The notes beneath the pieces are model-generated. The model made no database searches. It saw only the letters and a list, made by a program, of their open reading frames with translations, and had not been told where the DNA came from. Source: Candidatus Roizmanbacteria bacterium RIFCSPHIGHO2_02_FULL_37_13b (GTDB lineage Bacteria > Patescibacteriota > Microgenomatia > UBA1406 > HO2-37-13b). Taken from it: a stretch of DNA of 64,000 bases. This document shows positions 1-33,774 of this stretch, piece after piece. The DNA is taken from NCBI GenBank assembly GCA_001789395.1, contig MFZK01000021.1:2114-66113 (forward strand), written 5' to 3'. The position numbers and the translations under genes are program-made. Numbering within the stretch: the stretch's first letter is position 1; every line of letters begins with the position of its first letter.

Positions 1-1905
1 TCGCTTGTTATCTCGACGATATTATCCATAGATCGTCACACCTCTTTTTTTGGTTATTATGGGAGATTTAATGGAGGCTTACTTTCAACAGTTGCATATT
101 TAGTACTTTATTATGGTTTTGTTTCCAATATTGACCTTGATAGACTAAATCTTCTGACAAATAATTTATTACTTAAAATTTCTTTGATTGCATCTTTAAT
201 CGTGATTTTATGGGGTTTGCCAGGTCATTTTGGCTATGATATGAGTTGTTTCGTATTTACCGGAGAATTAAGTAATAACTGTTGGACAAGCCAATTTCGT
301 CCTCATGAAAGGATGTTCTCGACGCTCGGGCAACCAAATTGGCTCGGTGCATATTTAGCCATTAATTTTTTTATCGGGTTATATTTTTTCATACAAAAAT
401 TTCTTAAAAAACAAAATTGGCTGTGGTTCTATATATATTTATTATTAAATTTCGTGGGCATACTTTTTACTCGATCAAGATCGGCTCTCATGGCTCTAAT
501 TGTTGGAATAGTTTTATGTTTTATGTACTTAAGTTTAAAAAAGCAGGTGAATAAAAAACTAATTCTTACGACTTTGATATTGTTCATTTTACCGATCATA
601 TTATTTAAAACAGGGATATCACAAGTTGATAAATACCTATCACTACCGCGTCAAGTCACAAGTAGCGTTTTAAAATCTACTTCAAGTCAGACTGCGATAC
701 CGAATGATTCTTCAGTGACTGAATCTTTTGATATTAGAAAAATTGTTTGGTATGGAGCAATTCAATTAGGATTCAAGTACCCGCTATTTGGGTCGGGTGT
801 TGAAACTTTTGCCTATGCCTATAATTTTGTCAGACCAGCCGCACATAATTTGACATCTGAATGGGATTTCATCTACAACAAAGCGCATAATGAGTATCTT
901 AATTTTTTGGCAACTACTGGTTTTATCGGATTGATATCTTATTTACTGTTGATAATTGGATATTTATTTTTTGTTTTTAGAGCGATTAAAAAACAACAGA
1001 ATTTACTGATCATTTTTTTAACGATTGGTTGGATAACCATTTTGATCACAAACTTTTTTGGGTTCTCAACCACGACGGTTAATATTTATTTTTACCTTAT
1101 ACCGGCCGTTGCCTTCGTTATTACTTTAGACAGTCAGAAGGAGATAATTTATAAGACATTATCATCGATTCAAAAAACATTCTTGATTGTCCCGGTGATT
1201 ATATTCATTTTAGGCACGACTTATATAGTCAATTATTTCTTAGCAGATATAAGTTATGCGGAGGGAGATAATTATTTCAAAATACAGCAATATTCCGCCG
1301 CGGAATCCAAACTGGATCAAGCACTCTCGATGCGTAGTGAACCGGTTTATATGGATAAATTGTCGTCAACTATCGCCAATAAATCCCTATTCGATCTCTC
1401 CTCTGGTCAAACCAATGATAAAAAAGCATTACAGGGGCAAATAAATAATAATTATAAAAAGGCAGTGATGTTTAGCCAACAAGCAATAAACAGTTCTTCA
1501 AGAAATGTTTACTATTGGCGAACGTTTTCAAAAGTTTTGTTTATTTTTTATCAAATAAGTCCGCAAGTGCAGATATATGATCAAGCAATTAAGACATTGG
1601 ATACGGCAATTAATCTTGCTCCAACTGATGCTAAACTTTTTTATACTAAAGCTCTTTTTTATATGTCAAGCGAGGATTCTGACTTAAATAAAGTTAAAAA
1701 TAGTAACGATAATTATGAGAAGGCTCTCATAAATATTGAAAAAGCAATAGAGTTAAAGAAGGATTATCGGGATGTATATCTTCTTAAAGGCACGACGCTT
1801 AATAGATTAGGTCGGAAATCAGAAGCTAAAGTTGTATTTCAATGGATGTTAGAGCAATTTAACCCAAAAGATGAGGAGGTCTTGCACGAATTACAATCCT
1901 TATAG
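1..1905 (+). CDS. O-antigen ligase/Wzy_C-like polytopic membrane protein with C-terminal TPR repeats (5' partial)
   Basis: Frame 1 has no stop from nt 1, so the Met at 184 is internal and the gene starts outside the window. It has many hydrophobic segments. TRSRSALMAL and KAHNEYLNFLATTGFIGL resemble Wzy_C/O-antigen ligase signatures. The C-terminal ~180 aa is TPR-like. Confidence 0.7.
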   Translation, partial: SLVISTILSIDRHTSFFGYYGRFNGGLLSTVAYLVLYYGFVSNIDLDRLNLLTNNLLLKISLIASLIVILWGLPGHFGYDMSCFVFTGELSNNCWTSQFRPHERMFSTLGQPNWLGAYLAINFFIGLYFFIQKFLKKQNWLWFYIYLLLNFVGILFTRSRSALMALIVGIVLCFMYLSLKKQVNKKLILTTLILFILPIILFKTGISQVDKYLSLPRQVTSSVLKSTSSQTAIPNDSSVTESFDIRKIVWYGAIQLGFKYPLFGSGVETFAYAYNFVRPAAHNLTSEWDFIYNKAHNEYLNFLATTGFIGLISYLLLIIGYLFFVFRAIKKQQNLLIIFLTIGWITILITNFFGFSTTTVNIYFYLIPAVAFVITLDSQKEIIYKTLSSIQKTFLIVPVIIFILGTTYIVNYFLADISYAEGDNYFKIQQYSAAESKLDQALSMRSEPVYMDKLSSTIANKSLFDLSSGQTNDKKALQGQINNNYKKAVMFSQQAINSSSRNVYYWRTFSKVLFIFYQISPQVQIYDQAIKTLDTAINLAPTDAKLFYTKALFYMSSEDSDLNKVKNSNDNYEKALINIEKAIELKKDYRDVYLLKGTTLNRLGRKSEAKVVFQWMLEQFNPKDEEVLHELQSL

Positions 1906-3243
1906 TTCTAACCTGTCATTTGAATCGAATTCGAATTTTATCTTCCCGGCGTTAAAAATAATTGATAGTAAAATCAATTGTGCTAGAAAATAATAATTGT
2001 TCATAAACGAATGGTAAAAAAAGTAATTATATACGATGGTTGTTGCAATAAGATAGTCCATAAATGACAATTTTAACGTCAAGATTATGAGCCAAAAAAA
2101 GACTAATAATATGAGACCGTATTTATTAATTAACTCAACATTCATATTGGGAGCAAGATGCCGCATGGCAGCTGGAACCGATAATGCTTGATAATAAGGA
2201 GGAATGAGTACTTTATCAGTAATGGGTGTTGTATTTTGAGAAGCCAATGTTGCAAACTTTTCCGGCAGATATGGAATCAAGATTCGATTTATGAAAGGGG
2301 GAGTTATATTTTTATACATGGCAGAACTTTGATATAGAAAAATAAACGTAAATATAAAAGGAATAAAAAATAAAAAAATTGCTTTAATAGATTGTCGGCG
2401 GACAATTTTTGAAAGTATATGGGGTAGATATATAAAATAATTATGTTTAAAAGAAAAGAAAAGACCGAGGAAAATAAAAGAAAACTTTAATTTTCTATTT
2501 ATGAAAAAGTATATAAATAACAGTAAAAACATTAATAACATAGGTTCTAAATAAGAAAATTCAAGAATATTAAATGTTTGGGGAAAAAAAAGAAAACAAC
2601 TGATTAATAAATTTGAATAACCGTTTTTCTTAAGCAGTTTATATAAAATAAGCGCACTGATTACATTGGCAAATATCAGACCGAATCTAGGGTCGTTAAA
2701 GATAACGACAAAGGGGAATAAATAAATAAGCGATGAGGGCAAATAACCGAGATCGTTACTTGTATTAGGATAAAGCTGGGTGTAATGAATTGCATAGGGA
2801 TCCTTTCCTTGGAATAATGCCATTGGTGATTCTTTCAGAAGGTAATAGACATCAATTTTGGGATCAGGCGAATTGGTAACGACAAATACTGAAATAAATA
2901 TGTAAACAAGCAGTAAGAAAATAATCGAGGTATTTTTCTTCAAAATAAACTGAGATATAAAAATATATCCGGTTAGTCCTAAAACCAATAGCTTTACCAT
3001 GACTCTTGCGTCGATGTTATGAAATATTCCTTGATAAGAAATTGCAGAAAAAAAAAGAATGCCAATAAAAAAGAAAGGGTGGGTTTGATATATCTCGTTC
3101 TTTGACGATTTTCTGATAAAAATAGCCAGAAAATACAATAAGACAATGGTCACTAATATAAAGCCGTAATACGAAAAATATCCCTGCGTTGGCACAAAAG
3201 CGATAAGTAATAACAATAATGGATAAATAGGATTATTAAACAT
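1900..3243 (-). CDS. polytopic membrane protein, putative GT-C-type glycosyltransferase (function uncertain)
   Basis: 447-aa ORF that is almost entirely hydrophobic helices with short loops. It lies between two other glycosyltransferase-like membrane proteins. I recognise no specific family motif. Confidence 0.5.
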   Translation of the reverse strand: MFNNPIYPLLLLLIAFVPTQGYFSYYGFILVTIVLLYFLAIFIRKSSKNEIYQTHPFFFIGILFFSAISYQGIFHNIDARVMVKLLVLGLTGYIFISQFILKKNTSIIFLLLVYIFISVFVVTNSPDPKIDVYYLLKESPMALFQGKDPYAIHYTQLYPNTSNDLGYLPSSLIYLFPFVVIFNDPRFGLIFANVISALILYKLLKKNGYSNLLISCFLFFPQTFNILEFSYLEPMLLMFLLLFIYFFINRKLKFSFIFLGLFFSFKHNYFIYLPHILSKIVRRQSIKAIFLFFIPFIFTFIFLYQSSAMYKNITPPFINRILIPYLPEKFATLASQNTTPITDKVLIPPYYQALSVPAAMRHLAPNMNVELINKYGLILLVFFWLIILTLKLSFMDYLIATTIVYNYFFYHSFMNNYYFLAQLILLSIIFNAGKIKFEFDSNDRLEL

Positions 3244-3249
3244 TGGTAC

Positions 3250-3335
3250 TTATTCCCGCTACGCGAAAACCGATGGGTTATTAACCCGCTTGATGAAGCT
3301 GTCATCGAGACTTTCGCTCCGCGGGATTTCAGCTA
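3250..3335 (-). repeat. structured intergenic element E1 (member of the CGAAGCGAA-core family)
   Basis: Outer stem TCCCGC(3254-3259)/GCGGGA(3321-3326) and inner stem GCGAAA(3263-3268)/TTTCGC(3312-3317). Two apical hairpins: GGGTT..AACCC and GATGA..TCATC. Same architecture and conserved flanks as 5945-6026. Confidence 0.5.
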
Positions 3336-3350
3336 TAAATCTCAATGAAT

Positions 3351-3371
3351 CCGAGGGCTGTTAGCCCTCGG
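3351..3371 (-). terminator. hairpin just downstream of the 3376 gene stop (possible terminator)
   Basis: CCGAGGGCT-gtt-AGCCCTCGG, a 9-bp GC-rich stem starting 5 nt after the stop codon. The U-tract is weak. Confidence 0.4.
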
Positions 3372-3375
3372 AGCT

Positions 3376-5139
3376 TCAATATAATGGTTTGTTTAGCTGT
3401 TTAAACTTATTCATAAATTCTTCTGCATTTTTGCTGTCTTTATAACAATTGGCATAAAGATCAATATATATTTTATAGACCTCTTTTAAATCAACTCGAT
3501 ATTTTTCCGAGGGGCCTAATATTTCTTTTGCTCTATTGCATTGTTTTACTTTTATGAGGCTTTTGGCAAATGCTAAAATATTTATAGTATTATCCGGCCA
3601 TAAATTAAAAGCCTGTTCATATTCACTACTTGAAAATTCATATTGTTTGTCTTTAAATAGGAGTTCCCCAAAGGTCCAATGGCCCAATGAATAAGTTCTA
3701 AGTACGTCAGATAAAAGCAAACTTCTGAATTTAGCTAAAGATCCGGACATTGGTGAATGATATTTATTCCAAAGAAGAATGTTACTGACGATTAATCCTT
3801 TTGCATCAGGCAAAGATTTTCCTTCTGAATAATATTTCCATAAAATACCCATGGGTAACCAGGAAGAATTTTTTGTGTTCAGGGGTTCATTACTATATAT
3901 AGGAAATCTTTCGCTATTAAAAAGTAAGAAATCATGGACAGTGATATCGTAATTACTATTAATTGCGGGTAGTTTTATATTCGGATAAAGTTTGCTTATT
4001 TTCACCTGATATTTAGCATCATTCAGCCGGAGAAAATTGATAAATTTGACGTCACGACGCTGGTGTTGTACCTCTTTTACAAACAGAGAATTGTAAGAAA
4101 TAGTATCACCTTTCAGATTTACTATTGAGTTTTTCTCTACACTATTTAATACGTCAAACCCAAAATTTTCAGCCGTAAAATCCTGTTTTAGAAGAAGAAT
4201 ACGAGGAGAATTATTGATAAAAAGTATTAGACAATAAATTAACAATGATATCGAAAAGGCGGCAGCTCCAGCGATTTTAAGAGTTTTATTGTGAAGTCTA
4301 TTATTTACCAGTCCATTAATTGTTTTAAATCCTAAAAGCAATGCAACTGTTAAGAAAAAGTAAGGTATTAAAAGGTATTTTTCAAAAGTTCCGATTGTAA
4401 AATTAATTGTTAGCGGAAAGGAGGTATAGAAAAAGAAAACAACAAAAATAATAAACTGAATGATAAAAAATTTCTTCATGGCCTCATCCTTCATTTTTAA
4501 TATCGTCACAAAACCGGCAATTATAAAGAATGTGCCAATTATTTTGAAATCAGTCAAAATAAAATTAAAAAAATTGAGTAATGACGTTGTCGCTGCCGAT
4601 AGTGAAAAAAAAGTTGTGCGTGATAATCGGAATATTCCATAATCACTCCGTGCGATCAATCGAAGTAAATCGACTAAATTGCTTGGAAAAGTTGTCTCAA
4701 GGGGTGTTACCGTACCAGCCCTAAAGAGGTAATAAAAATAAGGTGTTCCACCTAAAAAGAATAAAAGGAAGAGTATCAGTCGGTCATGGATCTTTTTAAA
4801 AAAAATAGTCTTTGTCCTGTATAGATAAAAACAAATGCCGGGTATTACCAAAAGTATCAGATAATTGTGAAAAGTTGCAAGTCCTAAGATAAAAAAGAAA
4901 ATACGCATTTGCAGAGCCGTCTTTATATTAGCTCCAAAAGCTAAGTACATTAGAATAGCTAAATATAATATGACCATTGTAATCACCTCAGGAATCGATG
5001 AAAATAGCCATACCGGGTATAGAAAGGAGAAAATAAATGCACCGCATAGCGCTAAATAATCAGACTTAAGTAATTTCCGTAAGGTTAGAAATAGAAAAAT
5101 TCGTGTAATGGCGATTGCAAAAGAAGACAGTAAAGTCAC
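3376..5139 (-). CDS. DUF2723-like GT-C family membrane protein with C-terminal TPR-like region; true N-terminus probably extends to ~5340-5352
   Basis: 587-aa ORF called from a GTG. The same frame stays open upstream to 5361. That upstream stretch encodes ...ICILSSGFLINVFFQSYSIYGGDGGELVTAAYLSSIPHPPGFPLYLLI, which resembles the conserved DUF2723 N-terminal motif (D.GE...HPPGYPLY). Confidence 0.7.
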   Translation of the reverse strand: MTLLSSFAIAITRIFLFLTLRKLLKSDYLALCGAFIFSFLYPVWLFSSIPEVITMVILYLAILMYLAFGANIKTALQMRIFFFILGLATFHNYLILLVIPGICFYLYRTKTIFFKKIHDRLILFLLFFLGGTPYFYYLFRAGTVTPLETTFPSNLVDLLRLIARSDYGIFRLSRTTFFSLSAATTSLLNFFNFILTDFKIIGTFFIIAGFVTILKMKDEAMKKFFIIQFIIFVVFFFYTSFPLTINFTIGTFEKYLLIPYFFLTVALLLGFKTINGLVNNRLHNKTLKIAGAAAFSISLLIYCLILFINNSPRILLLKQDFTAENFGFDVLNSVEKNSIVNLKGDTISYNSLFVKEVQHQRRDVKFINFLRLNDAKYQVKISKLYPNIKLPAINSNYDITVHDFLLFNSERFPIYSNEPLNTKNSSWLPMGILWKYYSEGKSLPDAKGLIVSNILLWNKYHSPMSGSLAKFRSLLLSDVLRTYSLGHWTFGELLFKDKQYEFSSSEYEQAFNLWPDNTINILAFAKSLIKVKQCNRAKEILGPSEKYRVDLKEVYKIYIDLYANCYKDSKNAEEFMNKFKQLNKPLY

Positions 5140-5361
5140 TCTCCATGCGATGCTAGCAAATGGTATAAATTTAACAAAAAACGATGATATTAAAAGATAA
5201 AGTGGGAATCCTGGTGGGTGTGGAATACTTGAAAGATAGGCGGCAGTGACTAGCTCTCCCCCATCTCCACCATATATGCTGTAGCTTTGAAAAAAAACAT
5301 TGATTAAAAAACCACTACTCAGAATACAAATTGTTACAATTCTTTTTAGCAGATTAGTATC

Positions 5362-5883
5362 TTATTGGACACACCAGTAACAGGTTGTTGATGTTCCGCA
5401 GGCTGCTCCCGGGCAGGTCGCATCATCAACACCGTATACATCATATTTTGTATTTGGATCACATCTGAACGACTTAGACGTTGGCTGAAAGCATACCCTA
5501 ATTGAGTCGCTTGTACCCGTTGCAAATACACGTTGAAGATTATTTCCTGCCAAACTTTGGAAATTACTCTTTAATTCTCCCGTAGTCACAATACTGGATA
5601 CTGCAGTAGACATAACAACCGTTGTGAGTGTATCTCCGGATGGTAATGTATCAGCCGTGCATGCTGCATCATCACAGTAAGGCATAAGACTTTTTAAAGC
5701 ATAATAGCGAATGACTGATCCATGGACTTCAGAAACAAGATTTCTGACACTTGTGTCATTTCCTTTTTTAAGCTGTTCAAAAGGATCAAGCGCAGCCAAC
5801 AGTCCAACTGCTAAAGCACCCAAAAGAGCAATTACTATTAAAAGTTCAATCAATGTAAAACCGTGAAGAAATTTTTTTTTCAT
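5362..5883 (-). CDS. type IV pilin (prepilin N-terminal cleavage/methylation motif), probable major pilin
   Basis: MKKKFLHG|FTLIELLIVIALLG is a class III signal peptide. The C-terminus is Cys-rich, and a promoter-like sequence lies upstream of the gene. GC looks higher than in neighbouring genes. Confidence 0.85.
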   Translation of the reverse strand: MKKKFLHGFTLIELLIVIALLGALAVGLLAALDPFEQLKKGNDTSVRNLVSEVHGSVIRYYALKSLMPYCDDAACTADTLPSGDTLTTVVMSTAVSSIVTTGELKSNFQSLAGNNLQRVFATGTSDSIRVCFQPTSKSFRCDPNTKYDVYGVDDATCPGAACGTSTTCYWCVQ

Positions 5884-5907
5884 AAGATTTTTTTAACTTA
5901 CATTTTA

Positions 5908-5937
5908 ATAATAATAACTTGCAGTTGGGTTTGTCAA
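5908..5937 (-). promoter_or_regulatory. sigma70-like promoter for the major pilin gene
   Basis: On the minus strand, TTGACA (5937-5932), an 18-nt spacer, then TATTAT (5913-5908), ~25 nt upstream of the ATG at 5883. Confidence 0.5.
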
Positions 5938-5944
5938 GGGCAAT

Positions 5945-6026
5945 TTTCAATCCTCCTTCGCGAAAATCTTGATCATCAGATTGCAAGACTTAAAAACCAT
6001 TTTTCGCTTCGGCAGGATTTCGGCTC
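5945..6026 (-). repeat. structured intergenic element E2 (member of the CGAAGCGAA-core family)
   Basis: Outer stem AATCCT(5949-5954)/AGGATT(6014-6019) and inner stem GCGAAAA(5960-5966)/TTTTCGC(6001-6007). Conserved CGCGAAAA, AGACTT, TTCGCT and GGATTTC.GCT blocks are shared with 3250-3335. Confidence 0.5.
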
Positions 6027-6071
6027 TTTTGATAAAAGTAAAATGTGTCCCGGTGTCTATTGGCAGGAGCC

Positions 6072-7271
6072 TCAAAATGCATTAGTTAGGTTGTAGATAG
6101 GCGTTATCACCGAAAAGACAATAAATCCGACACCAATAGCTAATACTACTAATATCACAGGTTCAATCATAGTGGTCAATGCTTTGATCGCCAGTTCTGA
6201 TTCCATTTCAAAAAAAACCGACATTTTAAATAAGACTTCATCCAAATGGCCAGTTTGCTCACCTACCGTGGTCATTTGCACCAATATTGGCGGAAAGAGC
6301 TCCAGTTGCCCCATACTTTTTCCCAAAGAATCCCCTTTTTCGACACGGTTTTTAATCGTGGCAAATGCGTCCTGAAAAACCAGATTGCTGGACGTTTCTA
6401 CAGCGATAGATAACGCCTCAATAATAGATACTCCTGATTTCATCAGTATTGAGAGAGTTCGAGTCGTATCAACCAATGCCGACATTTTTATGATCTTATT
6501 AAAAAGCGGTATTTTTAATATTAATCTATCAAACAATTTCTTACCTCGTTTAGTGTGAAGAATCCTTTTCGTCAAAACTACTGCACCAAATATAATTATT
6601 ATGACAAGCGGCCAAGCACGCTGGAAAAAAGAAGAAATTACAATTAGAATTTTGGTGGTTATCGGTAAATCTATATCAAAATCTTTATACAATTCGAGTA
6701 ATTTTGGGATGACAAAGGTTATCATAACAAATATGACTCCAATCATCCCGATAATAATTATCACCGGATATATTAATGCTCCTTTTATCTTAGCTTTAAA
6801 TGTGCGCTGCTTTTCGAGCTGATCTGCTAGGCGGACAAGTATTTCATCAAGTTTGCCAGATGCCTCACCAGACTTGACCAATGCAATATAGAGGTTGTTA
6901 AAGTGATGCGGATATTGACTCATCGCTAAGGATAAACTGTTTCCTGCTCTAATGCTGTCATCTAAACTATTGATAAGCCTGAGCATTGCCGGATTAGTCG
7001 TCTGCTTTTTTAAAATATCTAAGGCATCGATTATCGTCAATCCGGCATTAAACATAATCGCGAGTTGACGAGTAAAATCGACAATATCTGAATGACCAAC
7101 GCTTGCGAAATATTTATTCTGCATCTCATTGAATAAATTTTTATGCTCAAATATATCAACAATGAGGTAATTTTTTGCTTTGAGATATTCTATCAACTTT
7201 TGTTTGTTATCAGCCTCTATGTTTGCTTTAATCAGGACATTGTTTTTCAGAGCCTTATAGGTGAATTTCAT
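6072..7271 (-). CDS. pilC: type IV pilus platform protein PilC (GspF family)
   Basis: 399 aa with a duplicated GspF-like domain and three TM regions. It sits adjacent to the pilT and pilB ATPases. Confidence 0.85.
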   Translation of the reverse strand: MKFTYKALKNNVLIKANIEADNKQKLIEYLKAKNYLIVDIFEHKNLFNEMQNKYFASVGHSDIVDFTRQLAIMFNAGLTIIDALDILKKQTTNPAMLRLINSLDDSIRAGNSLSLAMSQYPHHFNNLYIALVKSGEASGKLDEILVRLADQLEKQRTFKAKIKGALIYPVIIIIGMIGVIFVMITFVIPKLLELYKDFDIDLPITTKILIVISSFFQRAWPLVIIIIFGAVVLTKRILHTKRGKKLFDRLILKIPLFNKIIKMSALVDTTRTLSILMKSGVSIIEALSIAVETSSNLVFQDAFATIKNRVEKGDSLGKSMGQLELFPPILVQMTTVGEQTGHLDEVLFKMSVFFEMESELAIKALTTMIEPVILVVLAIGVGFIVFSVITPIYNLTNAF

Positions 7272-7292
7272 AAGATTAAACAGAGAAACTTA

Positions 7293-8345
7293 TTAACCAA
7301 CTAGTTTTTTCATCTCTGCTTGTCTGATCGAATACGCAAGCGCGACATCTTTACTGATTTTTCCTTGAGTATAAAGACCATATAAATCCTTCTCAAAATA
7401 AATCATACCCTCGTTGGCTGAAGTTTGAATTACATTGTCGATCAAATGAGTTTTTCCTTCTCTAATTATGGAAGCAACAGCCGATGTATTGAGAAGTATC
7501 TCACATACTGGTAGACGACCATCATTACTTATATTAGGAACTAATCTTTGTGTCACAACAGCTTTTAAGACTGATGATAATTGAATCTTTACTTGACCTT
7601 GCTGATGGGCAGGGAAAACATCGATAATCCGGTCAATGGTTTGTGCTGCCGAATTGGTATGAACCGTAGAAAAAACCAAGTGACCAGTCTCAGCAATAGT
7701 TAAAGCAGCTTGAATTGTCTCATAATCCCGCATTTCTCCAATTAAGACTACATCCGGATCTTCTCGCAGAGCCGATTTTAATGCAATGGTCCAAGTATGA
7801 GTATCTTGTCCAATTTCACGTTGTGAAATTACTGATTTAATCGGTGGATAGATATATTCAATTGGATCCTCAATGGTCAATATGTGTTTTGAATATTTAG
7901 TATTTACTTCATTAATTATCGAAGCAAGAGAAGTTGATTTTCCCTCTCCGGTCGGGCCTGTCACCAAAATAAAACCTTGTTTTAAATCTATAAATTGATG
8001 CAATATTGTTGGTAAACCCAATTCTTCGATGGTCTTAATTTTCTCAGGAATTAGTCGAAATGATGCTGCTACTGCACCTTTGACATAGTACATGTTTATT
8101 CTGAAGCGATGGTTGAGGAAGTTATAGCCAAAATCCAGTTCTCTATCTACGTGAAGCTTTTCTTTATGTTCATCATTCAAAATAGTAAGTAGCATGGCTT
8201 CGCTTGTTTGATTATCAATGATAGAAAGAGTTCGGAGTTGTATTAAATCACCATTGACTCGAATCGTCGGATAATATTGAGGAATTATATGAAGATCAGA
8301 TGCTGCTCTTTCAATCGTTAATTTTAATAGTTGGCTTATGTCCAT
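7293..8345 (-). CDS. pilT: twitching-motility retraction ATPase PilT
   Basis: 350 aa with Walker A GPTGEGKST. It has typical PilT length and lacks the N-terminal T2SSE_N domain. Confidence 0.85.
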   Translation of the reverse strand: MDISQLLKLTIERAASDLHIIPQYYPTIRVNGDLIQLRTLSIIDNQTSEAMLLTILNDEHKEKLHVDRELDFGYNFLNHRFRINMYYVKGAVAASFRLIPEKIKTIEELGLPTILHQFIDLKQGFILVTGPTGEGKSTSLASIINEVNTKYSKHILTIEDPIEYIYPPIKSVISQREIGQDTHTWTIALKSALREDPDVVLIGEMRDYETIQAALTIAETGHLVFSTVHTNSAAQTIDRIIDVFPAHQQGQVKIQLSSVLKAVVTQRLVPNISNDGRLPVCEILLNTSAVASIIREGKTHLIDNVIQTSANEGMIYFEKDLYGLYTQGKISKDVALAYSIRQAEMKKLVG

Positions 8346-8369
8346 ACTTTAATAATAAATAAAAATAAA

Positions 8370-10094
8370 CTATATTTCAGCTACTCGTAAAACTTCTTCA
8401 ATTGTGGTGATTCCCTCAAGAACCTTCAAATAACCATCTTGAATCATCGTGATTAAGCTTTCCTTTTTAGCCTGTTTTTCTATTTCGTCTGCAGATGGAT
8501 GACTAATTATTAATTTAGTTATTTCTGGTGTCACCTTTAAAACTTCAAAAATACCAATTCGGCCTAAATATCCCATATGGTTGCATTCTTCACAACCCAC
8601 TGCTTTAAATATTTTTACTGATTGTGGATTTTCTTGAATTTTTTTAGGAAGAAAATTTTGCAGAACTGTGCTTATATTAGCTAATGCTTCTTGCGAAGGA
8701 CTAAAACTTAATTTGCAATATTGACAAAGCGTACGAGTGATACGTTGACCAATGACGGCGTTTAATACAGAGGCAATTAGAAATGGCTCAGCACCCAAGT
8801 CTACGAGTCGTGGAATAGCAGTTGATGCATCATTAGTATGAAGTGTTGAAAAAACTAGATGGCCTGTCAATGCCGCTTGAATTGCTAATTGAGTTGTCTC
8901 TTTATCGCGAATTTCACCAACCAAGATAATGTTAGGATCTTGTCTTAAAAAAGATCTAAGTCCCGTAGCGAAAGTGAGACCAGATTGCGGATTGATTTGT
9001 ACTTGATTGATTCCTAAAATTTGATATTCAACCGGATCCTCAAGAGTTAATATATTAACGCTTGGCTTATTAAGTTTTGACAGTACGGAATAAAGCGTTG
9101 TTGACTTGCCAGAACCTGTGGGACCAGTGACAAGAATAATACCGTAGGGCTTTTCTATAGCTTCTTCAAGTACTTTCAATTGTGGTCCTCTTAAACCCAA
9201 ATCATAAAGAGAGGGTAACCCACCCGTTTTTTTTAATAATCTCATGACGACTTTTTCGCCATTTATCGTGGGCAACGTCGATACACGCAGATCTACTTCT
9301 TCTGCTCCTATTTTAAAGTTAAATCGACCATCTTGAGGAATTCTTTTTTCATCAATTTTAAGCCCCGACAGTATTTTTATTCGGGAAATCAAGGATTCAT
9401 GGATGAGTTTTGGAAGTGTCAGCTTTTCTTGAAGAATACCATCAATCCGATATCTAATTTTAGTCCGATTTTCCTGTGGTTCAATATGGACGTCAGACGC
9501 TCGTCCTTTTACGGCAAATTCAAGTATCGTAGAAACAATTTTAGCAATGGGCGCTTCTTTAATAAGCTCGCCTAGATTCTCTACTCTTACTGTTTTAATC
9601 GCTGGTTCGACTTCTTTTAACGCCGCAACAATATCAGGTGAAAAAGTTTTTGTATAAAAAATGTCAATAGCACGTGTTATATCATCAGCTAATCCTAAAG
9701 TCGTAATGATTCTTTTACTTGTTTTTTTTTCTAAAAATTCTTTAACTTGAACATCAAAAGGATTCTCCATGACTACTTTGAGCGTGTTTTTATTATCATC
9801 TAGTTCTACTGGGATTAATACATATTTACTAGCTATAGATTCGGGTATTAAATTTAGAGCTTGAGGAGCAATCGGGGAAGTGTTAACATCGATATAGTCA
9901 ACCTTTAAAATTTGTGCTTTAGCTTTTAATATCGACTCCTTTTTAATTTTAGAGATTGTAAGTAAATATTCATCAATGGGTATATTTTTCTGAAGAGATT
10001 CTATTTCATAGTGCTGAGCTTCTTCTTGAGTTATAGCACCATCAATAACTAAGGCATTTAGAAAACTTTTAGCAGGAATGACCATATATTTCAA
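8370..10094 (-). CDS. pilB: type IV pilus assembly ATPase PilB (GspE family)
   Basis: 574 aa with Walker A GPTGSGKST and a tetracysteine motif (CQYC...CEEC). An N-terminal GspE-type domain is present. Confidence 0.9.
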   Translation of the reverse strand: MKYMVIPAKSFLNALVIDGAITQEEAQHYEIESLQKNIPIDEYLLTISKIKKESILKAKAQILKVDYIDVNTSPIAPQALNLIPESIASKYVLIPVELDDNKNTLKVVMENPFDVQVKEFLEKKTSKRIITTLGLADDITRAIDIFYTKTFSPDIVAALKEVEPAIKTVRVENLGELIKEAPIAKIVSTILEFAVKGRASDVHIEPQENRTKIRYRIDGILQEKLTLPKLIHESLISRIKILSGLKIDEKRIPQDGRFNFKIGAEEVDLRVSTLPTINGEKVVMRLLKKTGGLPSLYDLGLRGPQLKVLEEAIEKPYGIILVTGPTGSGKSTTLYSVLSKLNKPSVNILTLEDPVEYQILGINQVQINPQSGLTFATGLRSFLRQDPNIILVGEIRDKETTQLAIQAALTGHLVFSTLHTNDASTAIPRLVDLGAEPFLIASVLNAVIGQRITRTLCQYCKLSFSPSQEALANISTVLQNFLPKKIQENPQSVKIFKAVGCEECNHMGYLGRIGIFEVLKVTPEITKLIISHPSADEIEKQAKKESLITMIQDGYLKVLEGITTIEEVLRVAEI

Positions 10095-10127
10095 TATATA
10101 TGAAACTCGTGTTAAAATGCAACTAGA

Positions 10128-10802
10128 ATGTTGCCTATAATTTTAATTTCACCAAATCGGAAAGAGACAGAAAAATATATTAATTATTTGAAAAAAAAAT
10201 ATTACCCTAAAGCCTTAGTTCATGAGTTTGAAAAAGATCCAAATATTATAACCATTGACCAAATAAGAGAAATAACGTCTCTTTTTAAATTTGCCTCAAA
10301 AATGCAGCGAATAATAGTGGTTCATAATTTCGAAACAGCTAAAGAAGAAACTCAAAATGCTTTTTTAAAAACCCTGGAGGAGTCTTCCGTTAAAGCTCAA
10401 TTTGTTTTAGTGACTACGGACGTAAATGCCATGTTACCAACAATTCATTCTCGTTGTCGTATATTCAGATTGAATAAAAGTGAAGTTGATTCAGTAGATT
10501 TCGACTTCAATTTATCTCTCTTTAATTTGTTGTCTAGCATGACCTTAAAAAAAAGAGATAAGATTGAAGGCATTGCCCAATGTGATAGGTTGATATCATA
10601 TTTTAAAGCACGATTTATAGATCTCTCTAAAAAAAACATTGTAAAACTGAAAATCTATTCTGATATTTTGAAAGAGGTAATCAACGTACGTCGTCTTCTT
10701 GATAAAAACAATTTGAATCCACAGTTGGCCTTGGACCATTTAATTATCTTTATCAAAAAAACAATCTCAAAAGATTCGGATAAAGTACAACTAAAGGGTT
10801 GA
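10128..10802 (+). CDS. holB: DNA polymerase III delta-prime-like clamp-loader subunit (short form)
   Basis: 224 aa. It has the SRC motif (TIHSRCRIFRL) and NAFLKTLEE, both typical of the HolB/RFC family. Confidence 0.65.
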   Translation: MLPIILISPNRKETEKYINYLKKKYYPKALVHEFEKDPNIITIDQIREITSLFKFASKMQRIIVVHNFETAKEETQNAFLKTLEESSVKAQFVLVTTDVNAMLPTIHSRCRIFRLNKSEVDSVDFDFNLSLFNLLSSMTLKKRDKIEGIAQCDRLISYFKARFIDLSKKNIVKLKIYSDILKEVINVRRLLDKNNLNPQLALDHLIIFIKKTISKDSDKVQLKG

Positions 10803-10827
10803 CATGTTTTATAAAAATAACTATTCT
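10799..10827 (+). promoter_or_regulatory. sigma70-like promoter of the prepilin/pilMNO operon, overlapping the holB stop
   Basis: TTGACA (10799-10804), a 17-nt spacer, then TATTCT (10822-10827). The ATG at 10836 lies 8 nt after the -10 box and no SD motif is present. Confidence 0.45.
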
Positions 10828-10835
10828 TTTATATA

Positions 10836-11228
10836 ATGACATCAAAAAGATTTGGGTTTACATTGATAGAAATTCTGATTGCTATGTCAATTCTTGGCAT
10901 AATGGCCGCATTGATAACCGGTAATTATTTGATTACACAAAAACGAGCCCGTGATGCCCGTCGTAAAAGCGACCTCCATAATATTCAAAATGGGCTCGAA
11001 CAATATTATGCTAATTGTAATTTTGCTTATCCAACGCCCTTAGCAAATAATACTTTTTCAAGTCTTACCTGTTTATCTCCAAGTCTGGCGCTAATGCCCA
11101 CTGTACCAGTTGATCCTTTGACCATTTCACCTTATCCTTGTACTTCTTGTTCTGACAGTCAGTATCAATTATGTTCGACTTTGGAAGTTGAAACACCGCA
11201 GACATATTGTCTTACCAATGCTCAATAA
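10836..11228 (+). CDS. prepilin-type protein (PulG/type IV pilin-like)
   Basis: MTSKRFG|FTLIEILIAMSILG leader, followed by ARDARRKSDL, typical of the GspG/pilin N-terminal helix. Confidence 0.8.
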   Translation: MTSKRFGFTLIEILIAMSILGIMAALITGNYLITQKRARDARRKSDLHNIQNGLEQYYANCNFAYPTPLANNTFSSLTCLSPSLALMPTVPVDPLTISPYPCTSCSDSQYQLCSTLEVETPQTYCLTNAQ

Positions 11229-11235
11229 AACAAAT

Positions 11236-11691
11236 ATGCTTTATAAAAAAAAGTCAGGATTTACGTTACTAGAAATGTTGGTTGTAATTACCATTATTTC
11301 TCTTCTGGCATCAATCGGAATCACATCTTATACATCATTCAACAAAAATTCACGTGATGGGCGTCGAAAAGCCGATATTGAACAAATCAGAGCGGCATTA
11401 GAACTATACCGTAGTAATAACGGTTCTTATCCACTGCCAATAGGGACATTCGGGTTATCTTTTGGTTCAGGTGCATTGACCGATGGCAGCAATACTTATC
11501 TATCAAAAATTCCAAATGATCCTAAAAATTCAAAAAGTTATTTTTATACATCTGACGGGAATGATTACACTCTAGGCGGGCTTCTTGAAGGTGTGACAAC
11601 GATTCCTCCCTCATGCTCCACGACTAAATGTGACCCTTCTGATTTAGATGTCACCTGCAATTATTGCCTCGGTCCATATGGTGAAAAATAA
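11236..11691 (+). CDS. prepilin-type protein (PulG/type IV pilin-like)
   Basis: MLYKKKSG|FTLLEMLVVITIISLLA from the ATG at 11236. The ORF-track start at 11188 adds an implausible 16-aa extension. SRDGRRKADI helix motif. Confidence 0.8.
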   Translation: MLYKKKSGFTLLEMLVVITIISLLASIGITSYTSFNKNSRDGRRKADIEQIRAALELYRSNNGSYPLPIGTFGLSFGSGALTDGSNTYLSKIPNDPKNSKSYFYTSDGNDYTLGGLLEGVTTIPPSCSTTKCDPSDLDVTCNYCLGPYGEK

Positions 11692-12175
11692 AAAGGCCGG
11701 TAAGGGTTTTACTCTAATAGAGATATTAGTAGTCGCCTCGGCTATAATACTTTTTTTTGGGATTTCATTACGGTATTTTAATGACTTTAATGAACTTAAG
11801 AAATTGGAAGTAGAGACAGAAAATCTCGCTGAGACCCTTCGACAAGCGAGAAAAAGTGCTGCTTCAGGCGATAAAAGTCAATTTGCTACAGAAACCTGCA
11901 TTTTAACTGGGTATAGCGTCATTTATTCATCTGAAAATAATAAATATTCTCAGCATGCTATATGCAATGGTGATAAATTAATCGGTGAAGCAGCGCTGCC
12001 ATCGGAAATACAGCTTTGTCAATCAGGCACGATTACATTTAAACAATTTGGTTTAGGAGCAATAAGTGGATCGATCAAGCTGCGTAGCGCTCGAATAAAT
12101 AAGTGCCGGGAAATTGTCATTGACAGTTCAGGAGATATCAATATTAGTGAGTTAATTCAAAATTGTAGTTGTTGA
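11678..12175 (+). CDS. minor pseudopilin (GspH/FimT-like)
   Basis: MVKNKKAGKG|FTLIEILVV from the ATG at 11678. LAETLRQARKSAASG resembles the GspH/FimT family. Confidence 0.7.
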   Translation: MVKNKKAGKGFTLIEILVVASAIILFFGISLRYFNDFNELKKLEVETENLAETLRQARKSAASGDKSQFATETCILTGYSVIYSSENNKYSQHAICNGDKLIGEAALPSEIQLCQSGTITFKQFGLGAISGSIKLRSARINKCREIVIDSSGDINISELIQNCSC

Positions 12176-12176
12176 T

Positions 12177-12629
12177 ATGGAAATTAGAAAAGCAGGTTTC
12201 ACGCTGATAGAGGTTGTAATTTTTGTTAGTTTAATATCCGTGATTTTTGTCACTTTTGCAGCTTTGACAACGACAACTATCCGCTGGTCTAAAATAAACG
12301 AACATAAAATATTAGCCTCGCACAACACTGAAGAACTTCGGGAATGGTTAAGAGGTCAAAAAGAAGCTGATTTTGATGGGTTTGTAGCAAAAAATGGCAG
12401 TTGGTGTTTCAATAGTCATGCCTTTCCAGATGATTATTCAAGTTGGATTTCTTCATCTGATCCGAGTTGTGGTTATACGCTTGATAACAATATTTTCAAA
12501 AGAACGGTAACGCTGACGAGTCAGGAAAATGGTAATAAAGTGCTAATCTCTATCCATACTGAATGGTTTGAAGGCTCTCAATTTTATAAGATAGACGAGA
12601 AAGCTTTATTTTCTCTGTATGAGTTATGA
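12177..12629 (+). CDS. minor prepilin-type protein
   Basis: MEIRKAG|FTLIEVVIFVSLISVIF leader motif. Confidence 0.7.
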   Translation: MEIRKAGFTLIEVVIFVSLISVIFVTFAALTTTTIRWSKINEHKILASHNTEELREWLRGQKEADFDGFVAKNGSWCFNSHAFPDDYSSWISSSDPSCGYTLDNNIFKRTVTLTSQENGNKVLISIHTEWFEGSQFYKIDEKALFSLYEL

Positions 12630-28066: not shown

Positions 28067-28077
28067 TTTATTTGAGT

Positions 28078-28151
28078 GACCGCTAGAGGACTTGAACCTC
28101 TGACCTTCACAATGTCAATGTGACGCTCTAGCCAACTGAGCTAAGCGGTCA
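28078..28151 (-). tRNA. tRNA-Val (anticodon GAC)
   Basis: Hand-folded cloverleaf: acceptor GACCGCT/AGCGGTC, D-arm GCTCAGTTGGCTAGAGC, anticodon loop TTGACAT, T-arm GGTTCAAGTCC. Confidence 0.85.
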
Positions 28152-28153
28152 AG

Positions 28154-29446
28154 TCATTTAATTATTCTACCAAATAACTTGTCTTTTTGATACTTGATAA
28201 CCTCAATTCTTTTGATATCTCCCGGTCTTATCGATGTTTTTTCAACATACACTGGAACTTGATTATCTAAGAGAACCTCTTGTATGCTGTCTGTATTTTT
28301 TAAAAACAATGCGTTACTTTTATAGCCCAAAAGACTTTTCTGAAACGCTTCAAACTTTTCATCTGATAATTCTCGAAGCAATCGAGAACGTTCAATTTTA
28401 GTTTTATTATCAGGTTCTTTCAGTCTTTTTGCTAAATAATAACCGGCAGTCATTTCTCTTTTGGAAAATCTGAATACGTGAAATTTTGAAATTGGCGATT
28501 TATCAAGAAAATTATAAGTATCTTTAAAATCATTATCTGTTTCCTCGAGAAACCCAACAATAATGTCTGTTGATATAAAAATCCTTTTATTTATCGACGC
28601 GAGTCGTTTTACTCGATCTATCATGTCTTCTCTTGTATGACATCGTTTCATTAGGGTGAGTATTTTATTTGAACCGGATTGAAGAGGAATATGAAAAAAA
28701 TTGACTAAGCGATTGTTTATTTGCTCTTGTTGATAAAAATCGATAAATTCGTTTGTTATACTCCAAGGATGAACGGATCCAAAACTTAATCTAGGAACCT
28801 TCGTATTTTTTAACACCGATTTAATAAGTTCTATGAAACCTTCGTTTGAATCTTTGCCAAATGCTTCGGTATTTATAGCAGTTAAAACAACTTCTTTAAT
28901 ATTGTCTGAGGAATGATTTATGGTATTCACTATTTCTTTGATTGGTATAGACTTTGGTAAACCCCGTAAATATGGAACAATGCAGAATGAACAAAATCGA
29001 TGACAGCCATCCTGAATTTTGACCAATAATCTTCCAGATAACAAAAATTTGTCGGATAGTATATCAACCACTTTCGGACGGCCGTCTAAAAGTGGTATAT
29101 TCTTTAACAGTTTATTTTTAATTAATTGGACTAAGTATTCTTTTTGGAGATTATCAGTAATTAAGTCAACGGGTAAATCGGTATATTTGCCAGACTTTAA
29201 CCAATATGTGCTGCAACAGCCGGTGACGACTATCTTGGTCTGAGGTTGTTTTTTTCGAACTTGGTAGATAAGTTGTCTGGCCTCCCTTTCTGCTTTTTGG
29301 GTGACAGAGCAGGTATTAATGATATATATATCAGGCTCTACAGTAGTTTGTTTAAAACCTTTGATAATCATTTGTCGATCAATTTCTTCTTTTTCCGCTA
29401 TATTTACTCGACATCCAAAACTAAAAGAATCAAAGGTGGGTGGCAT
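28154..29446 (-). CDS. radical-SAM methylthiotransferase (MiaB/MtaB-like tRNA-modifying enzyme)
   Basis: N-terminal UPF0004 cysteines (FGCRVN, NTCSVT, GCC), a CxxxCxxC radical-SAM motif (CHRFCSFC), and a C-terminal TRAM-like region. Confidence 0.8.
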   Translation of the reverse strand: MPPTFDSFSFGCRVNIAEKEEIDRQMIIKGFKQTTVEPDIYIINTCSVTQKAEREARQLIYQVRKKQPQTKIVVTGCCSTYWLKSGKYTDLPVDLITDNLQKEYLVQLIKNKLLKNIPLLDGRPKVVDILSDKFLLSGRLLVKIQDGCHRFCSFCIVPYLRGLPKSIPIKEIVNTINHSSDNIKEVVLTAINTEAFGKDSNEGFIELIKSVLKNTKVPRLSFGSVHPWSITNEFIDFYQQEQINNRLVNFFHIPLQSGSNKILTLMKRCHTREDMIDRVKRLASINKRIFISTDIIVGFLEETDNDFKDTYNFLDKSPISKFHVFRFSKREMTAGYYLAKRLKEPDNKTKIERSRLLRELSDEKFEAFQKSLLGYKSNALFLKNTDSIQEVLLDNQVPVYVEKTSIRPGDIKRIEVIKYQKDKLFGRIIK

Positions 29447-29467
29447 AATTAGAATTAAATTTTATCA

Positions 29468-29866
29468 TTACATCGCAGTATCTTCAAAAGGAGGAGGCGC
29501 TGCTCGATTACCGACGAAGAGATGAGATGCTCTACTGACGACGTTTTTAAGCGCGTGGATGATGTTTTTGAAAAAATGTGGTAGATGATGACGGGCAGCT
29601 GGTTGGGCTTGAGTTTGATGGGTATCGACGGGATTAGACATATCAATTATTGGGTGTTCTTCTAACAGTTGAGTATGTAGTGCATCTCGGATTACGCTTT
29701 CAGCACCTACACGTACGGAGTCATCTGCTGTCGGATCAGGATCGGAATCAACCATAGGTCTATCTCCTTCATCCCTAAAAGTAGGTGATGGAATTGCAGG
29801 TTCTCGATTTGGAGTTCCATTAGCTATTACTTCGACTCCTTCTATCTCCGGAGCAGTATCCGCCAT
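29468..29866 (-). CDS. orphan acidic, Pro-rich, probably disordered protein in a GC-rich island
   Basis: Uninterrupted 132-codon ORF. My hand count is 182 G+C in 399 nt (~46%), against ~32% in the first 100 nt of the adjacent gene. TATAAT (29880-29875) lies 8 nt upstream of the ATG. I recognise no family. Confidence 0.55.
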   Translation of the reverse strand: MADTAPEIEGVEVIANGTPNREPAIPSPTFRDEGDRPMVDSDPDPTADDSVRVGAESVIRDALHTQLLEEHPIIDMSNPVDTHQTQAQPAARHHLPHFFKNIIHALKNVVSRASHLFVGNRAAPPPFEDTAM

Positions 29867-29887
29867 ATATAAATATTATAGACTATC

Positions 29888-30412
29888 TTACATTACCGAG
29901 CGAGTATTTTGAAGTTCTTGAGAAAGAGAATATTGAGTGCCTTTCTTTTTTGATAAAACAGCAAATAATGAACCCCGTTTTTTCTTTTTTGTCTGCATTG
30001 CTGACAGCCAGGTTTTTGCTTCAGTTGCTTTTGCACGAAGATCGCGAATTAAGCTGAGTAAAATTTCCAAGAAATGAATGTGGTAGATACCACCTTTTTC
30101 AGATATGGTTTGAAACGCAGCGTTTTCTATTTCTTCAGCTTGTGTTACTAGTTGCTTTTGAGATAATTTCAACGCCTTGATTTCTGCTCTAATCTCATCT
30201 TTTAATGATTCTATTTCTCTTGGGATCAATTCATTTTCTTGGTATTTTTGGTGACTGAATATTGTAAATTCCAGTCGTTGACTAAATCTAGAGACTGGTT
30301 TTTCGTTAGAAATTTGATTGGTTTTTGACTCTGCAGAACTACCTCGCCAACTTGGTAGTTTTTCGATATCATTTTTCTTATTTGGATCTTGCCACTTACC
30401 CATTGTTTTCAT
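29888..30412 (-). CDS. hypothetical coiled-coil protein
   Basis: 174-aa ORF with local AT-rich composition. The central region has heptad-like charge repeats and the C-terminus is basic. I recognise no family. Confidence 0.5.
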   Translation of the reverse strand: MKTMGKWQDPNKKNDIEKLPSWRGSSAESKTNQISNEKPVSRFSQRLEFTIFSHQKYQENELIPREIESLKDEIRAEIKALKLSQKQLVTQAEEIENAAFQTISEKGGIYHIHFLEILLSLIRDLRAKATEAKTWLSAMQTKKKKRGSLFAVLSKKKGTQYSLSQELQNTRSVM

Positions 30413-30435
30413 GGTTAAATTATAATATTATTATA

Positions 30436-31308: not shown

Positions 31309-31373
31309 AATTATATTTTACCCACTTCCTCCCTGAAATTGTGCCGAGTCAATCTCGGCAACCAAGTATGACT

Positions 31374-31460
31374 TGGTGCCGCGAGGAGGACTTGAACCTC
31401 CATGCCTTTTCAGGCACACGGTCCTAAGCCGTGCCTGTCTACCAATTTCAGCATCGCGGC
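31374..31460 (-). tRNA. tRNA-Leu (anticodon TAG), CCA encoded
   Basis: Acceptor GCCGCGA/TCGCGGC, anticodon loop CTTAGGA, long variable arm, T-arm GGAGGTTCAAGTCCTCC, followed by ACCA. Confidence 0.85.
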
Positions 31461-31515
31461 AAATTCATGCGAATGCTTCCGCGGCCTGTTTCGCCTACCG
31501 CTAATTATAATTGAT

Positions 31516-32055: not shown

Positions 32056-32116
32056 ATATAAAAAAGATCCCAAAGCCAATCTAGAGACTTCTAGAAGAAC
32101 CTTAGGATCTGATAAG

Positions 32117-33773: not shown

Positions 33774-33774
33774 C

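Follow-up and report, generated by a model that had tools for sequence, protein, structure and literature searches.

A stretch of 64,000 nucleotides from Candidatus Roizmanbacteria bacterium RIFCSPHIGHO2_02_FULL_37_13b (contig MFZK01000021.1, positions 2,114 to 66,113; hereafter the window) contains two similar intergenic elements, E1 and E2, that adopt the same predicted RNA fold. The question raised by this locus is whether they are regulatory structures belonging to the genes that follow them or copies of a dispersed repeat. A first-pass annotation of the window had left both possibilities standing for E1, as a 5′ untranslated region (UTR) regulator of the membrane-protein gene at 1900-3243 or as an element resembling the repetitive extragenic palindromic (REP) sequences, and the data gathered here favor the latter. 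E1 and E2 belong to a structured repeat that is previously uncatalogued within the limits of our search of Rfam 15 and the literature. It is multi-copy, covarying, present or absent between close relatives, and lodged after genes, to which it often supplies the UGA stop codon. With slightly better than even confidence, we take E1 and E2 to be copies of a protein-less, insertion-type, REP-like repeat that acts as intergenic punctuation.

All sequence statements in the initial description of the two copies are borne out. The shared plus-strand blocks CGCGAAAA, AGACTT, TTCGCT, and GGATTTCNGCT are found in both copies at the places where they had been reported, and ViennaRNA returns the proposed fold for both, in which a symmetric 3×3 internal loop separates the outer stem from the inner one (GCGAAA(G)/UUUUCGC) and the apical part is variable. 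The z-score of the fold is −3.6 for E1 and only −1.25 for E2. The pair C3257:G3323 of E1 is equivalent to T5954:A6014 of E2, as had been claimed, since it is the fourth outer-stem pair in each copy; in the family as a whole, this pair is the most variable column (UG, GC, UA, GU, AU, CG). Some details have to be revised. The element is ~130 nt long by covariance model placement, instead of ~75 nt; the minus strand is most likely the functional one, instead of the plus strand; and AGACTT, although present in E1 and E2, is not a feature of the family. The covariance model (R1) scores E1 at 68.8 bits (E = 8e-14, model positions 1-136) and E2 at 80.8 bits (E = 1.5e-16), and an exhaustive search of the 64 kb without speed filters found these two copies and no third. 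The string GCGAAA-N(20-50)-TTTCGC occurs at the same two places only, versus 0.19 expected. Identity between E1 and E2 is only 59%, and both are outliers within the family; hence they are probably old copies of it.

The family was assembled with two pattern scans and the covariance model. The first scan searched one genome per GTDB species for AAATCC-N3-5-GNAGCGAAA-N25-55-TTTCGCGNAG and gave 46 matches versus ~1-2 expected from the information content of the pattern; ~38 of them are true and ~8 are chance matches within coding sequence. The second scan searched metagenomes for TGAAGCTCC-N35-65-GGAGCGAAATCC, a pattern that constrains the 5′ domain only and leaves the 3′ domain free. It gave at least 120 matches, and the model was applied to 80 of these loci. 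The model identifies 44 copies in the genome-set loci and the window (E ≤ 0.01), and 77 copies in the 80 metagenome loci, 6 of which are chance coding matches; more generally, the loci without a model match are chance coding matches or divergent elements. Pattern scans and model together give a family of ~110 copies, in genomes of Patescibacteria (the candidate phyla radiation, CPR) and Elusimicrobia and in groundwater and sediment metagenomes.

The hosts are mainly Patescibacteria (Roizman-, Woese-, Gottesman-, Levy-, and Uhrbacteria, Saccharibacteria, and Microgenomates), with two independent metagenome-assembled genomes (MAGs) of Elusimicrobia and one labeled Planctomycetia. Several genomes have two to five genome-scan matches each, and the same pattern scan of viral contigs gave none. 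Some copies lie in MAGs labeled Bathyarchaeia, Gammaproteobacteria, or Pseudomonadales (L014, L016, L030, and L044, all from MAG SMAG_U14175, as well as L017, L032, L034, L037, L040, L041, L048, L049, and L057, the last with a GC content of 40%). These copies are of the CPR type, with their nearest relatives in Roizman-, Woese-, and Gottesmanbacteria, and three of the four copies of the "Bathyarchaeia" MAG are within ~230 nt of a contig end. Either these labels or the binning can probably not be trusted. At the gathering threshold, Rfam 15 recovers only tRNAs in the window and in 16 loci with typical copies, and permissive scans of E1, E2, and one typical copy gave chance-level matches only (E ≥ 0.15). 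No description of the element was found in Rfam 15 or in the searchable literature on CPR repeats, structured RNAs, and REP-associated tyrosine transposases (RAYTs), a limited search that leaves room for a description elsewhere.

When the copies are aligned with their flanks, the element appears as a discrete unit of ~100-170 nt with sharp ends, running from (A/T/G)TGAAGCTCC to GGAT(A/T)AA. Its head, read on the minus strand of the window, is (A/U/G)UGAAGCUCC. The 5′ domain consists of a stem, GCUCC:GGAGC, around a GC-rich hairpin and a pyrimidine tract, and is joined by GAAAU to the 3′ domain. There, an anti-Shine-Dalgarno-like UCCNNCC pairs with a Shine-Dalgarno-like GGNGGA to form the outer stem, inside which lie a G-N-A/G-N-A internal loop and then the inner stem; this domain also has an A-rich tail and, optionally, a second GC-rich hairpin with U's behind it. 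Within a copy, the first hairpin resembles the second, and the two vary in step between subfamilies. The 5′ stem, which is weak in the subfamily of E1, covaries at one pair (GC in 22 copies, AU in 6, UA in 2). Minimal copies (L063, L111, L104) do without the second hairpin or without nearly the whole 3′ domain. In the loops of some others (L041, L061, L069, L076, L092, L097, L062, L027:4379-4549, L039, and L053), one can identify small nested GC-rich hairpin modules, such as CCTGCCTGCGCAGGCAGG, GCCTGCCCGCCGGCAAGGCAGG, and GGUUCGAC...GUCGAAGGAC; in the L027 copy, both hairpins carry the same extension.

Selection on the structure, for which two copies had given only thin covariation, is strongly supported by ~110. 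In the metagenome set, where the search pattern left the 3′ domain unconstrained, 92.5% of the cells are paired, versus 79.3% in shuffled alignments and 39-55% in slid registers; 16 of the 20 pairs show compensatory changes, and none of 500 shuffles reaches the observed values, the tested alignment having itself been fitted to the covariance model. The inner stem takes such different forms as GCGAAA/UUUCGC, GCAGAAA/UUUCUGC, GCGGAAA/UUUCCGC, ACAGAAG/CUUCUGU, and GAAGACC/GGUCUUC. Two copies found by the model independently of the patterns preserve all helices despite their different sequence; one of these, L034:4790-4927, has a 5′ stem GCACUC/GAGUGC and an outer stem CCCCGCACC/GGUGC(U)GGGG. The fold is under selection for pairing.

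As for the strand, a simple criterion detects a GC-rich hairpin with a U-rich tract behind it on the sense strand of 42 of 104 copies, versus 5 on the antisense strand and 4.6 in shuffled sequences, which indicates the sense strand; this test is cruder than a count of G-U against A-C pairs, but its asymmetry is clearer. The U tracts of these terminator-like hairpins are short or interrupted.

Several other interpretations of the structure were discarded. A small protein-coding gene, suggested by the ATG/TTG/GTG head and the TAA tail, is contradicted by stops in most copies and by a conserved block that falls in three frames. Hammerhead and twister readings made by eye were dropped (the CUGAUGA of E2 is not conserved), as was a K-turn, since the GAA/GAA loop does not fit the strand asymmetry of K-turns. 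Two further pairings, one between the head and an internal GCUUUCAU or GCUUCG and one between the pyrimidine tract and the 3′ tail, are supported in some subfamilies only and were not adopted.

The position of the copies relative to genes bears directly on their role. The upstream gene could be called for 101 copies and is on the same strand in 63 and on the opposite strand in 38; in the metagenome set, the ratio of same to opposite strand is 43:18 (binomial p = 0.002). Among the 63 same-strand upstream open reading frames (ORFs), 28 (44%) end on the element's own TGA, including those preceding E1 and E2, and the proteins that end in this way are full-length wherever this can be judged. Co-directional downstream genes often start 1-16 nt past the purine-rich tail. 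The upstream genes, as far as their C-termini can be judged by eye, are unrelated and housekeeping-like (L21, NusB, ClpP, UppS, PilB). An all-against-all comparison of neighboring ORFs revealed no recurrent protein family, be it transposase, reverse transcriptase, or integrase, and the element is therefore not tied to a gene family. Scattered intergenic copies that typically start at stop codons point to a dispersed repeat of the REP kind and not to a switch of the membrane-protein gene.

This context leaves very little room for a gene-specific, riboswitch-like 5′-UTR regulator of the membrane-protein and pilin genes. Such a role would fit the conserved fold and the placement of E1, which ends 5 nt before the AUG of the gene at 1900-3243, so that its 3′ strand could mask the ribosome-binding site. 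However, the pilin promoter lies between E2 and the pilin ATG, which places E2 upstream of the transcription start of that gene, and the orthologous genes of two related genomes (L007 and L008) lack the element. Across the family, the neighboring genes are unrelated, either housekeeping or accessory, and a large minority of copies is antisense to its neighbors (38 of 101 relative to the upstream gene). The gene-context data have already largely refuted this alternative, to which we assign hardly any probability, and with it the suggestion that E1 is a 5′-UTR regulator of the gene at 1900-3243.

Some neighbors proved to carry no information. CAP-domain proteins occur next to the element in L015 and L026, but this family is common in CPR. 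Four of ~40 copies are within 50 nt of a tRNA, which is estimated to be what random placement in the scarce intergenic DNA would give. Accessory genes are sometimes enclosed by copies. At L071:2959-3884, and likewise in L087, a Gp49/HigB-like toxin and an HI1420-type antidote are found between two inverted copies, and at L080:13146-14712 a 1.1-kb cassette with a DUF6036 nucleotidyltransferase follows gyrB and lies between direct repeats, each of which is a pair of copies.

Close relatives differ in the presence of the element. The nearest one available, L007 (PilC 86% identical), shares its genes and pilin promoter with the window and has neither element. Its pilC-pilin spacer is 79 nt long, versus 188 nt in the window, where MAFFT identifies directly past the pilC stop a block of ~114 nt that is absent from L007; the gap between the TMEM260-like gene and the next gene is 3 nt in L007 and 132 nt in the window. 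The element is also absent from L008 (68% identical), and a covariance model search of L007 to L011 found no copy. The TMEM260-like protein of the window (3376-5139) has a C-terminal extension of ~55 residues relative to that of L007 (2717-4420), which makes the comparison of filled and empty sites less clean for E1 than for E2. A different GC-rich structured insert of ~110 nt is found in the pilC-pilin spacer at L010:6060-6170 (also in L011; PilC 62% identical). It is not called by the covariance model, and its hairpin GUCCCGCUUAGCGGGAC is the apical hairpin of the minimal element copies L068, L098, and L122.

A cleaner pair of filled and empty sites is provided by L067 and its relatives L180, L181, and L178, from a Torokbacteria-like lineage (ClpP 95% identical). 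Between clpP and the next gene, the filled site reads AAA AAA TGA AGCTCC...GAAGGCGGATAAAAAT ATG and the empty ones AAA AAA TAA TAGAACCAAAAAAACAAT ATG. Hence, the TGA arrives with the element. The ClpP sequence is unchanged up to the stop, there is no duplication, and the tail of the element is the only Shine-Dalgarno-like sequence available to the downstream gene in L067. Mean identity between copies is 0.82 within genomes and 0.65 between genomes, and some genomes contain two subfamilies, the nearest relatives of each being in other genomes. The composition of the flanks gave no signal. Autonomous versions with an ORF between the two domains were sought in vain in both scans, every true match having adjacent 5′ and 3′ domains.

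These observations raise the question of how the element spreads. It could derive from a single-strand-DNA transposon, as a palindrome-associated transposable element (PATE) of IS200/IS605 type or a REP mobilized in trans by a Y1 (HUH) transposase, with the two similar hairpins as left and right ends recognized on one DNA strand. The absence of inverted repeats and target duplications is consistent with this, and so are the hairpins, which are on the same strand, alike within a copy, variable in step with each other between subfamilies, and able to share the same long extension. PATEs are likewise protein-less and mobilized in trans, and they can carry structured RNA (PMC10055086). A related CPR genome has a gene for such an enzyme: at L182:3080-3790 (and in L183), a gene for a 188-aa Y1_Tnp protein (IS200-like/RAYT-type, 30.7 bits) lies just downstream of clpP, the junction that the element occupies in L067, and inverted GC-rich hairpins with GTAG/CTAC motifs on either side of it give it the look of a REP/RAYT-type system. 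However, these hairpins are unrelated to the element, and the locus has no model match. In none of more than 110 copies is there a transposase or TnpB between the ends, TGA, the putative adjacent motif, arrives only with the element (the empty site has TAA), and spacer bases are lost on insertion. Nor would recognition of the ends explain the covarying outer and inner stems or the sense-specific U tracts. We therefore consider this origin improbable, though deserving of some weight.

Propagation through an RNA intermediate, with the element as a new self-cleaving ribozyme or as the RNA of a (retro)element, is very unlikely. The sharp 5′ and 3′ boundaries, the strong conservation of the junction nucleotides (GAAAUCC and the G-N-A/G-N-A loop) beside covarying helices, and the presence of multiple copies in more than one phylum would be compatible with it, and so would the small deletions at the insertion sites, which are also known from some insertions based on reverse transcription. 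Against this, no Rfam ribozyme family matches the element even at E ≤ 10, no reverse transcriptase is nearby, and the 3′ domain can be reduced to one short hairpin or be nearly lost (L063, L104), so that few nucleotides are universally conserved.

The stop codon at the head and the Shine-Dalgarno-like strand at the tail suggest a different kind of function, a relay of translational coupling useful to the host. In such an intercistronic switch, a ribosome ending at the head UGA would melt the 5′ stem GCUCC:GGAGC, and the freed GG(N)GGA would pair with the 5′ strand of the outer stem (e.g., GGCGGA-GCGAAA-UCCGCC) and release its Shine-Dalgarno-like 3′ strand, so that translation of the downstream gene would require that of the upstream one. 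In 44% of co-directional cases, the head falls exactly on the stop codon. In several copies, the alternative hairpin is extended in step with the outer stem, reaching 8 bp in L074 (GUGCGGGA/UCCCGCAC); the common GGCGGA/UCCGCC type has 6 bp, and in this type the outer stem has a G-A mismatch whereas GGAGGA is perfect. When nucleotides 1-15 are forced to be single-stranded, the median unpaired probability of the Shine-Dalgarno-like strand rises from 0.03 to 0.12 (p ~1e-4), and a control mask has no effect. This predicted effect is small, however, and the strand remains ~85% paired; the alternative hairpin has only 3 bp in many subfamilies, including that of E1. Some 38 of 101 copies run antisense to the gene before them, many are far from a downstream start, and the pilin gene is separated from E2 by its own promoter; presence and absence between close relatives also argues against an essential coupling device. 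A host-useful switch of this sort is thus doubtful. The same low likelihood is given to a mobile punctuation cassette, which would spread without a dedicated transposase, bring its own stop and ribosome-binding tract, and gate the downstream gene by a two-state fold responsive to ribosomes.

The REP-like repeat that we favor resembles several known systems without belonging to any of them. REPs and bacterial interspersed mosaic elements (BIMEs), known from Enterobacteria and Pseudomonas, are mobilized by RAYT Y1 transposases and co-transcribed with the upstream gene, and they affect mRNA stability, termination, and translation of neighboring genes. Like them, the element is short, protein-less, multi-copy, structured, and intergenic, often stands right after stop codons, and has copies that are alike within a genome. 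REPs are imperfect palindromes of ~35 nt (~20-40 nt) with a 5′ GTAG and species-specific sequences, whereas the element has 100-170 nt, a two-domain multi-helix fold, no conserved GTAG/CTAC, its own UGA head and Shine-Dalgarno-like tail, and sequence blocks kept across CPR classes and Elusimicrobia. No RAYT (Y1_Tnp) gene was found within 2.5 kb of 38 copies. With the PATEs of IS200/IS605 it shares the lack of proteins, of inverted repeats, and of target duplications, and similar one-strand hairpins near both ends. Unlike them, it has no pre-existing adjacent motif of 4-5 nt, as the 5′ TGA comes with the element, spacer bases are lost when it inserts, and neither scan revealed autonomous relatives (TnpA/TnpB) with the same ends.

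Repeats resembling miniature inverted-repeat transposable elements (Correia/NEMIS, RUP, BOX, ERIC, and bcr1 of Bacillus cereus) affect the expression of neighboring genes. They are comparable to the element in length (100-160 nt), dispersed intergenic placement, stable predicted RNA folds, and insertion polymorphism. Each of them is confined to one genus or species and bears terminal inverted repeats, target duplications (TA for Correia), or both, whereas the element has neither hallmark and is distributed across phylum-level lineages. It also recalls the attC sites of integrons, in which structure prevails over sequence and two stems with an unpaired central spacer are followed by a variable terminal part. 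As with attC, the element stands right after or overlaps the stop codon of the preceding ORF, and small accessory cassettes are occasionally flanked by its copies. But it lacks R″/R′ core sites (RYYYAAC/GTTRRRY), same-orientation cassette arrays, and a nearby integrase, and its copies are mostly solitary, between housekeeping genes. Because it misses at least one defining feature of each of them, it is best described as a variant of the dispersed structured intergenic repeat and not as a member of any of these kinds. Its stop-codon head, paired Shine-Dalgarno-like tail, two-domain covarying fold, and distribution from CPR classes to Elusimicrobia are unusual.

A REP-like, insertion-type repeat of this kind would have spread selfishly. 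Its ends would mimic gene punctuation, with a stop codon 5′ and a tract resembling a ribosome-binding site 3′, and for this reason its insertion between genes would be tolerated. Once inserted, it would be transcribed within the upstream mRNA, where its modules of hairpin plus U's may act like REPs and BIMEs, protecting the 3′ end of the upstream gene or partially terminating its transcript, while pairing within the element may mask the downstream ribosome-binding tract. In the window, E2 may mark the 3′ end of the pilB-pilT-pilC message, before the separately promoted pilin gene, and E1 would lie between the TMEM260-like gene and the gene for the 447-aa membrane protein.

Several observations weigh against this interpretation. 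The copies of the genome set show no orientation bias (20:20), unlike those of the metagenome set. Many copies stand directly before a co-directional gene, a placement that does not fit well with efficient termination, and the REP-like effects at the RNA level are something that we infer. The counts of G-U and A-C pairs do not single out one folding strand. As to mobility, the flanks of 36 copies have no target duplications, there are no terminal inverted repeats (the tail GGAT(A/T)AA is no inverted version of the head (A/T)TGAAGCTCC), and no transposase or reverse transcriptase was seen adjoining or inside the copies. In both pairs of filled and empty sites, the filled site lacks ~12 nt of the old spacer, a loss that neither simple cut-and-paste nor simple copy-in explains. 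The first-pass annotation had named copies in random orientation inside genes, as in a decaying mobile element, as a pattern that would refute its reading; such a pattern is partly seen in the orientation of the copies, and the covariation does not conform to it. Of the two roles proposed there for E1, the REP-like one is nevertheless the one that the data favor.

The coordinates of E1, E2, their parts, and the surrounding genes are given in the table.

Table. Location of the two copies of the repeat, their structural parts, and the adjacent genes in the window.
Feature	Position	Strand	Description	Basis
E1	3249-3379	minus	131 nt, full-length copy	Covariance model R1, family alignment A2
E1 head UUGA	3376-3379	minus	UGA 3378-3376 is the stop of the TMEM260-like gene (3376-5139)	ORF end; distance d = -4
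E1 first hairpin (H1)	3350-3372	minus	UCCGAGGGC-UAACA-GCCCUCGGA	Sequence; homologous H1 in subfamily L014, L016, L017, L030, L044
E1 junction	3330-3327	minus	GAAA	
E1 outer stem, 5′ strand	3326-3321	minus	UCCCGC	
E1 internal loop, 5′ side	3320-3318	minus	GGA	
E1 inner stem, 5′ strand	3317-3311	minus	GCGAAAG	
E1 second hairpin (H2)	3275-3287	minus	GGGUU-AAU-AACCC, then U-rich strand	Flagged terminator-like
E1 inner stem, 3′ strand	3269-3263	minus	UUUUCGC	
E1 internal loop, 3′ side	3262-3260	minus	GUA	
E1 outer stem, 3′ strand	3254-3259	minus	GCGGGA; purine-rich, Shine-Dalgarno-like	
E2	5946-6075	minus	130 nt, full-length copy, first hairpin degenerate	Covariance model R1
E2 head UUGA	6072-6075	minus	UGA 6074-6072 is the pilC stop codon	
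E2 5′ domain	6022-6071	minus	Closing stem GGCUC (6071-6067)/GAGCC (6026-6022)	
E2 outer stem 5′ strand, loop, inner stem 5′ strand	6001-6019	minus	AAUCCU(G)CC, loop GAA, GCGAAAA	
E2 inner stem 3′ strand, loop, outer stem 3′ strand	5949-5966	minus	UUUUCGC, loop GAA, GGAGGAUU	
Pilin promoter	5908-5937	minus	TTGACA-18-TATTAT; not part of E2	11/12 matches, best site in region; conserved in L007
pilB	8370-10094	minus		
pilT	7293-8345	minus		
pilC	6072-7271	minus		
Type IV pilin	5362-5883	minus		
TMEM260-like membrane protein	3376-5139	minus		
447-aa membrane protein	1900-3243	minus	Without Pfam match	

Both copies are in spacers of a string of minus-strand genes that runs from pilB to the gene of the 447-aa membrane protein. 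In E1, the tail AUAAG follows GCGGGA, and the AUG of the next gene is 5 nt past this tail. A separate terminator at 3350-3372 was rejected, as the GC hairpin at this position is the first hairpin of the family and lies inside E1. In E2, the 3′ strand of the outer stem, GGAGGAUU, is a perfect Shine-Dalgarno-like sequence, and the family homologs of its closing stem GGCUC/GAGCC covary (GC/AU/UA).

Other features of the window may be mentioned in passing. The region 5300-12200 is a complete type IV pilus cluster with pilB, pilT, pilC, the major pilin, and further genes; it also contains a gene for a protein similar to the δ′ subunit of DNA polymerase III and at least three plus-strand minor pilin genes (10836-12175). 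Large membrane proteins similar to GT-C glycosyltransferases and O-antigen ligases (184-5139) flank this cluster. Ten tRNA genes (Val, Leu ×3, Arg ×2, His, Lys, Thr, Val) are found within 15 kb at 28076-43280, none of them adjoining E1 or E2.

The genomes of CPR/Patescibacteria are very small and gene dense, with few recognized mobile elements or regulatory RNAs. The element provides a concrete new RNA/DNA family for their annotation, which otherwise may be miscalled as small ORFs and may mislead the prediction of terminators; it may also contribute to contig breaks. For the window, its recognition removes the idea of a riboswitch over the pilin or glycosyltransferase-like genes. For uncultured lineages, the element offers a natural marker of recent changes in the genome, and it is a tractable test case for the tolerance of selfish repeats inside operons and for their co-option in 3′-end formation or translational coupling. 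Were it to prove a punctuation cassette, it would be at once a selfish element and a portable regulator between cistrons, and a mode of spread that proves new would extend the list of mechanisms of intragenomic mobility.

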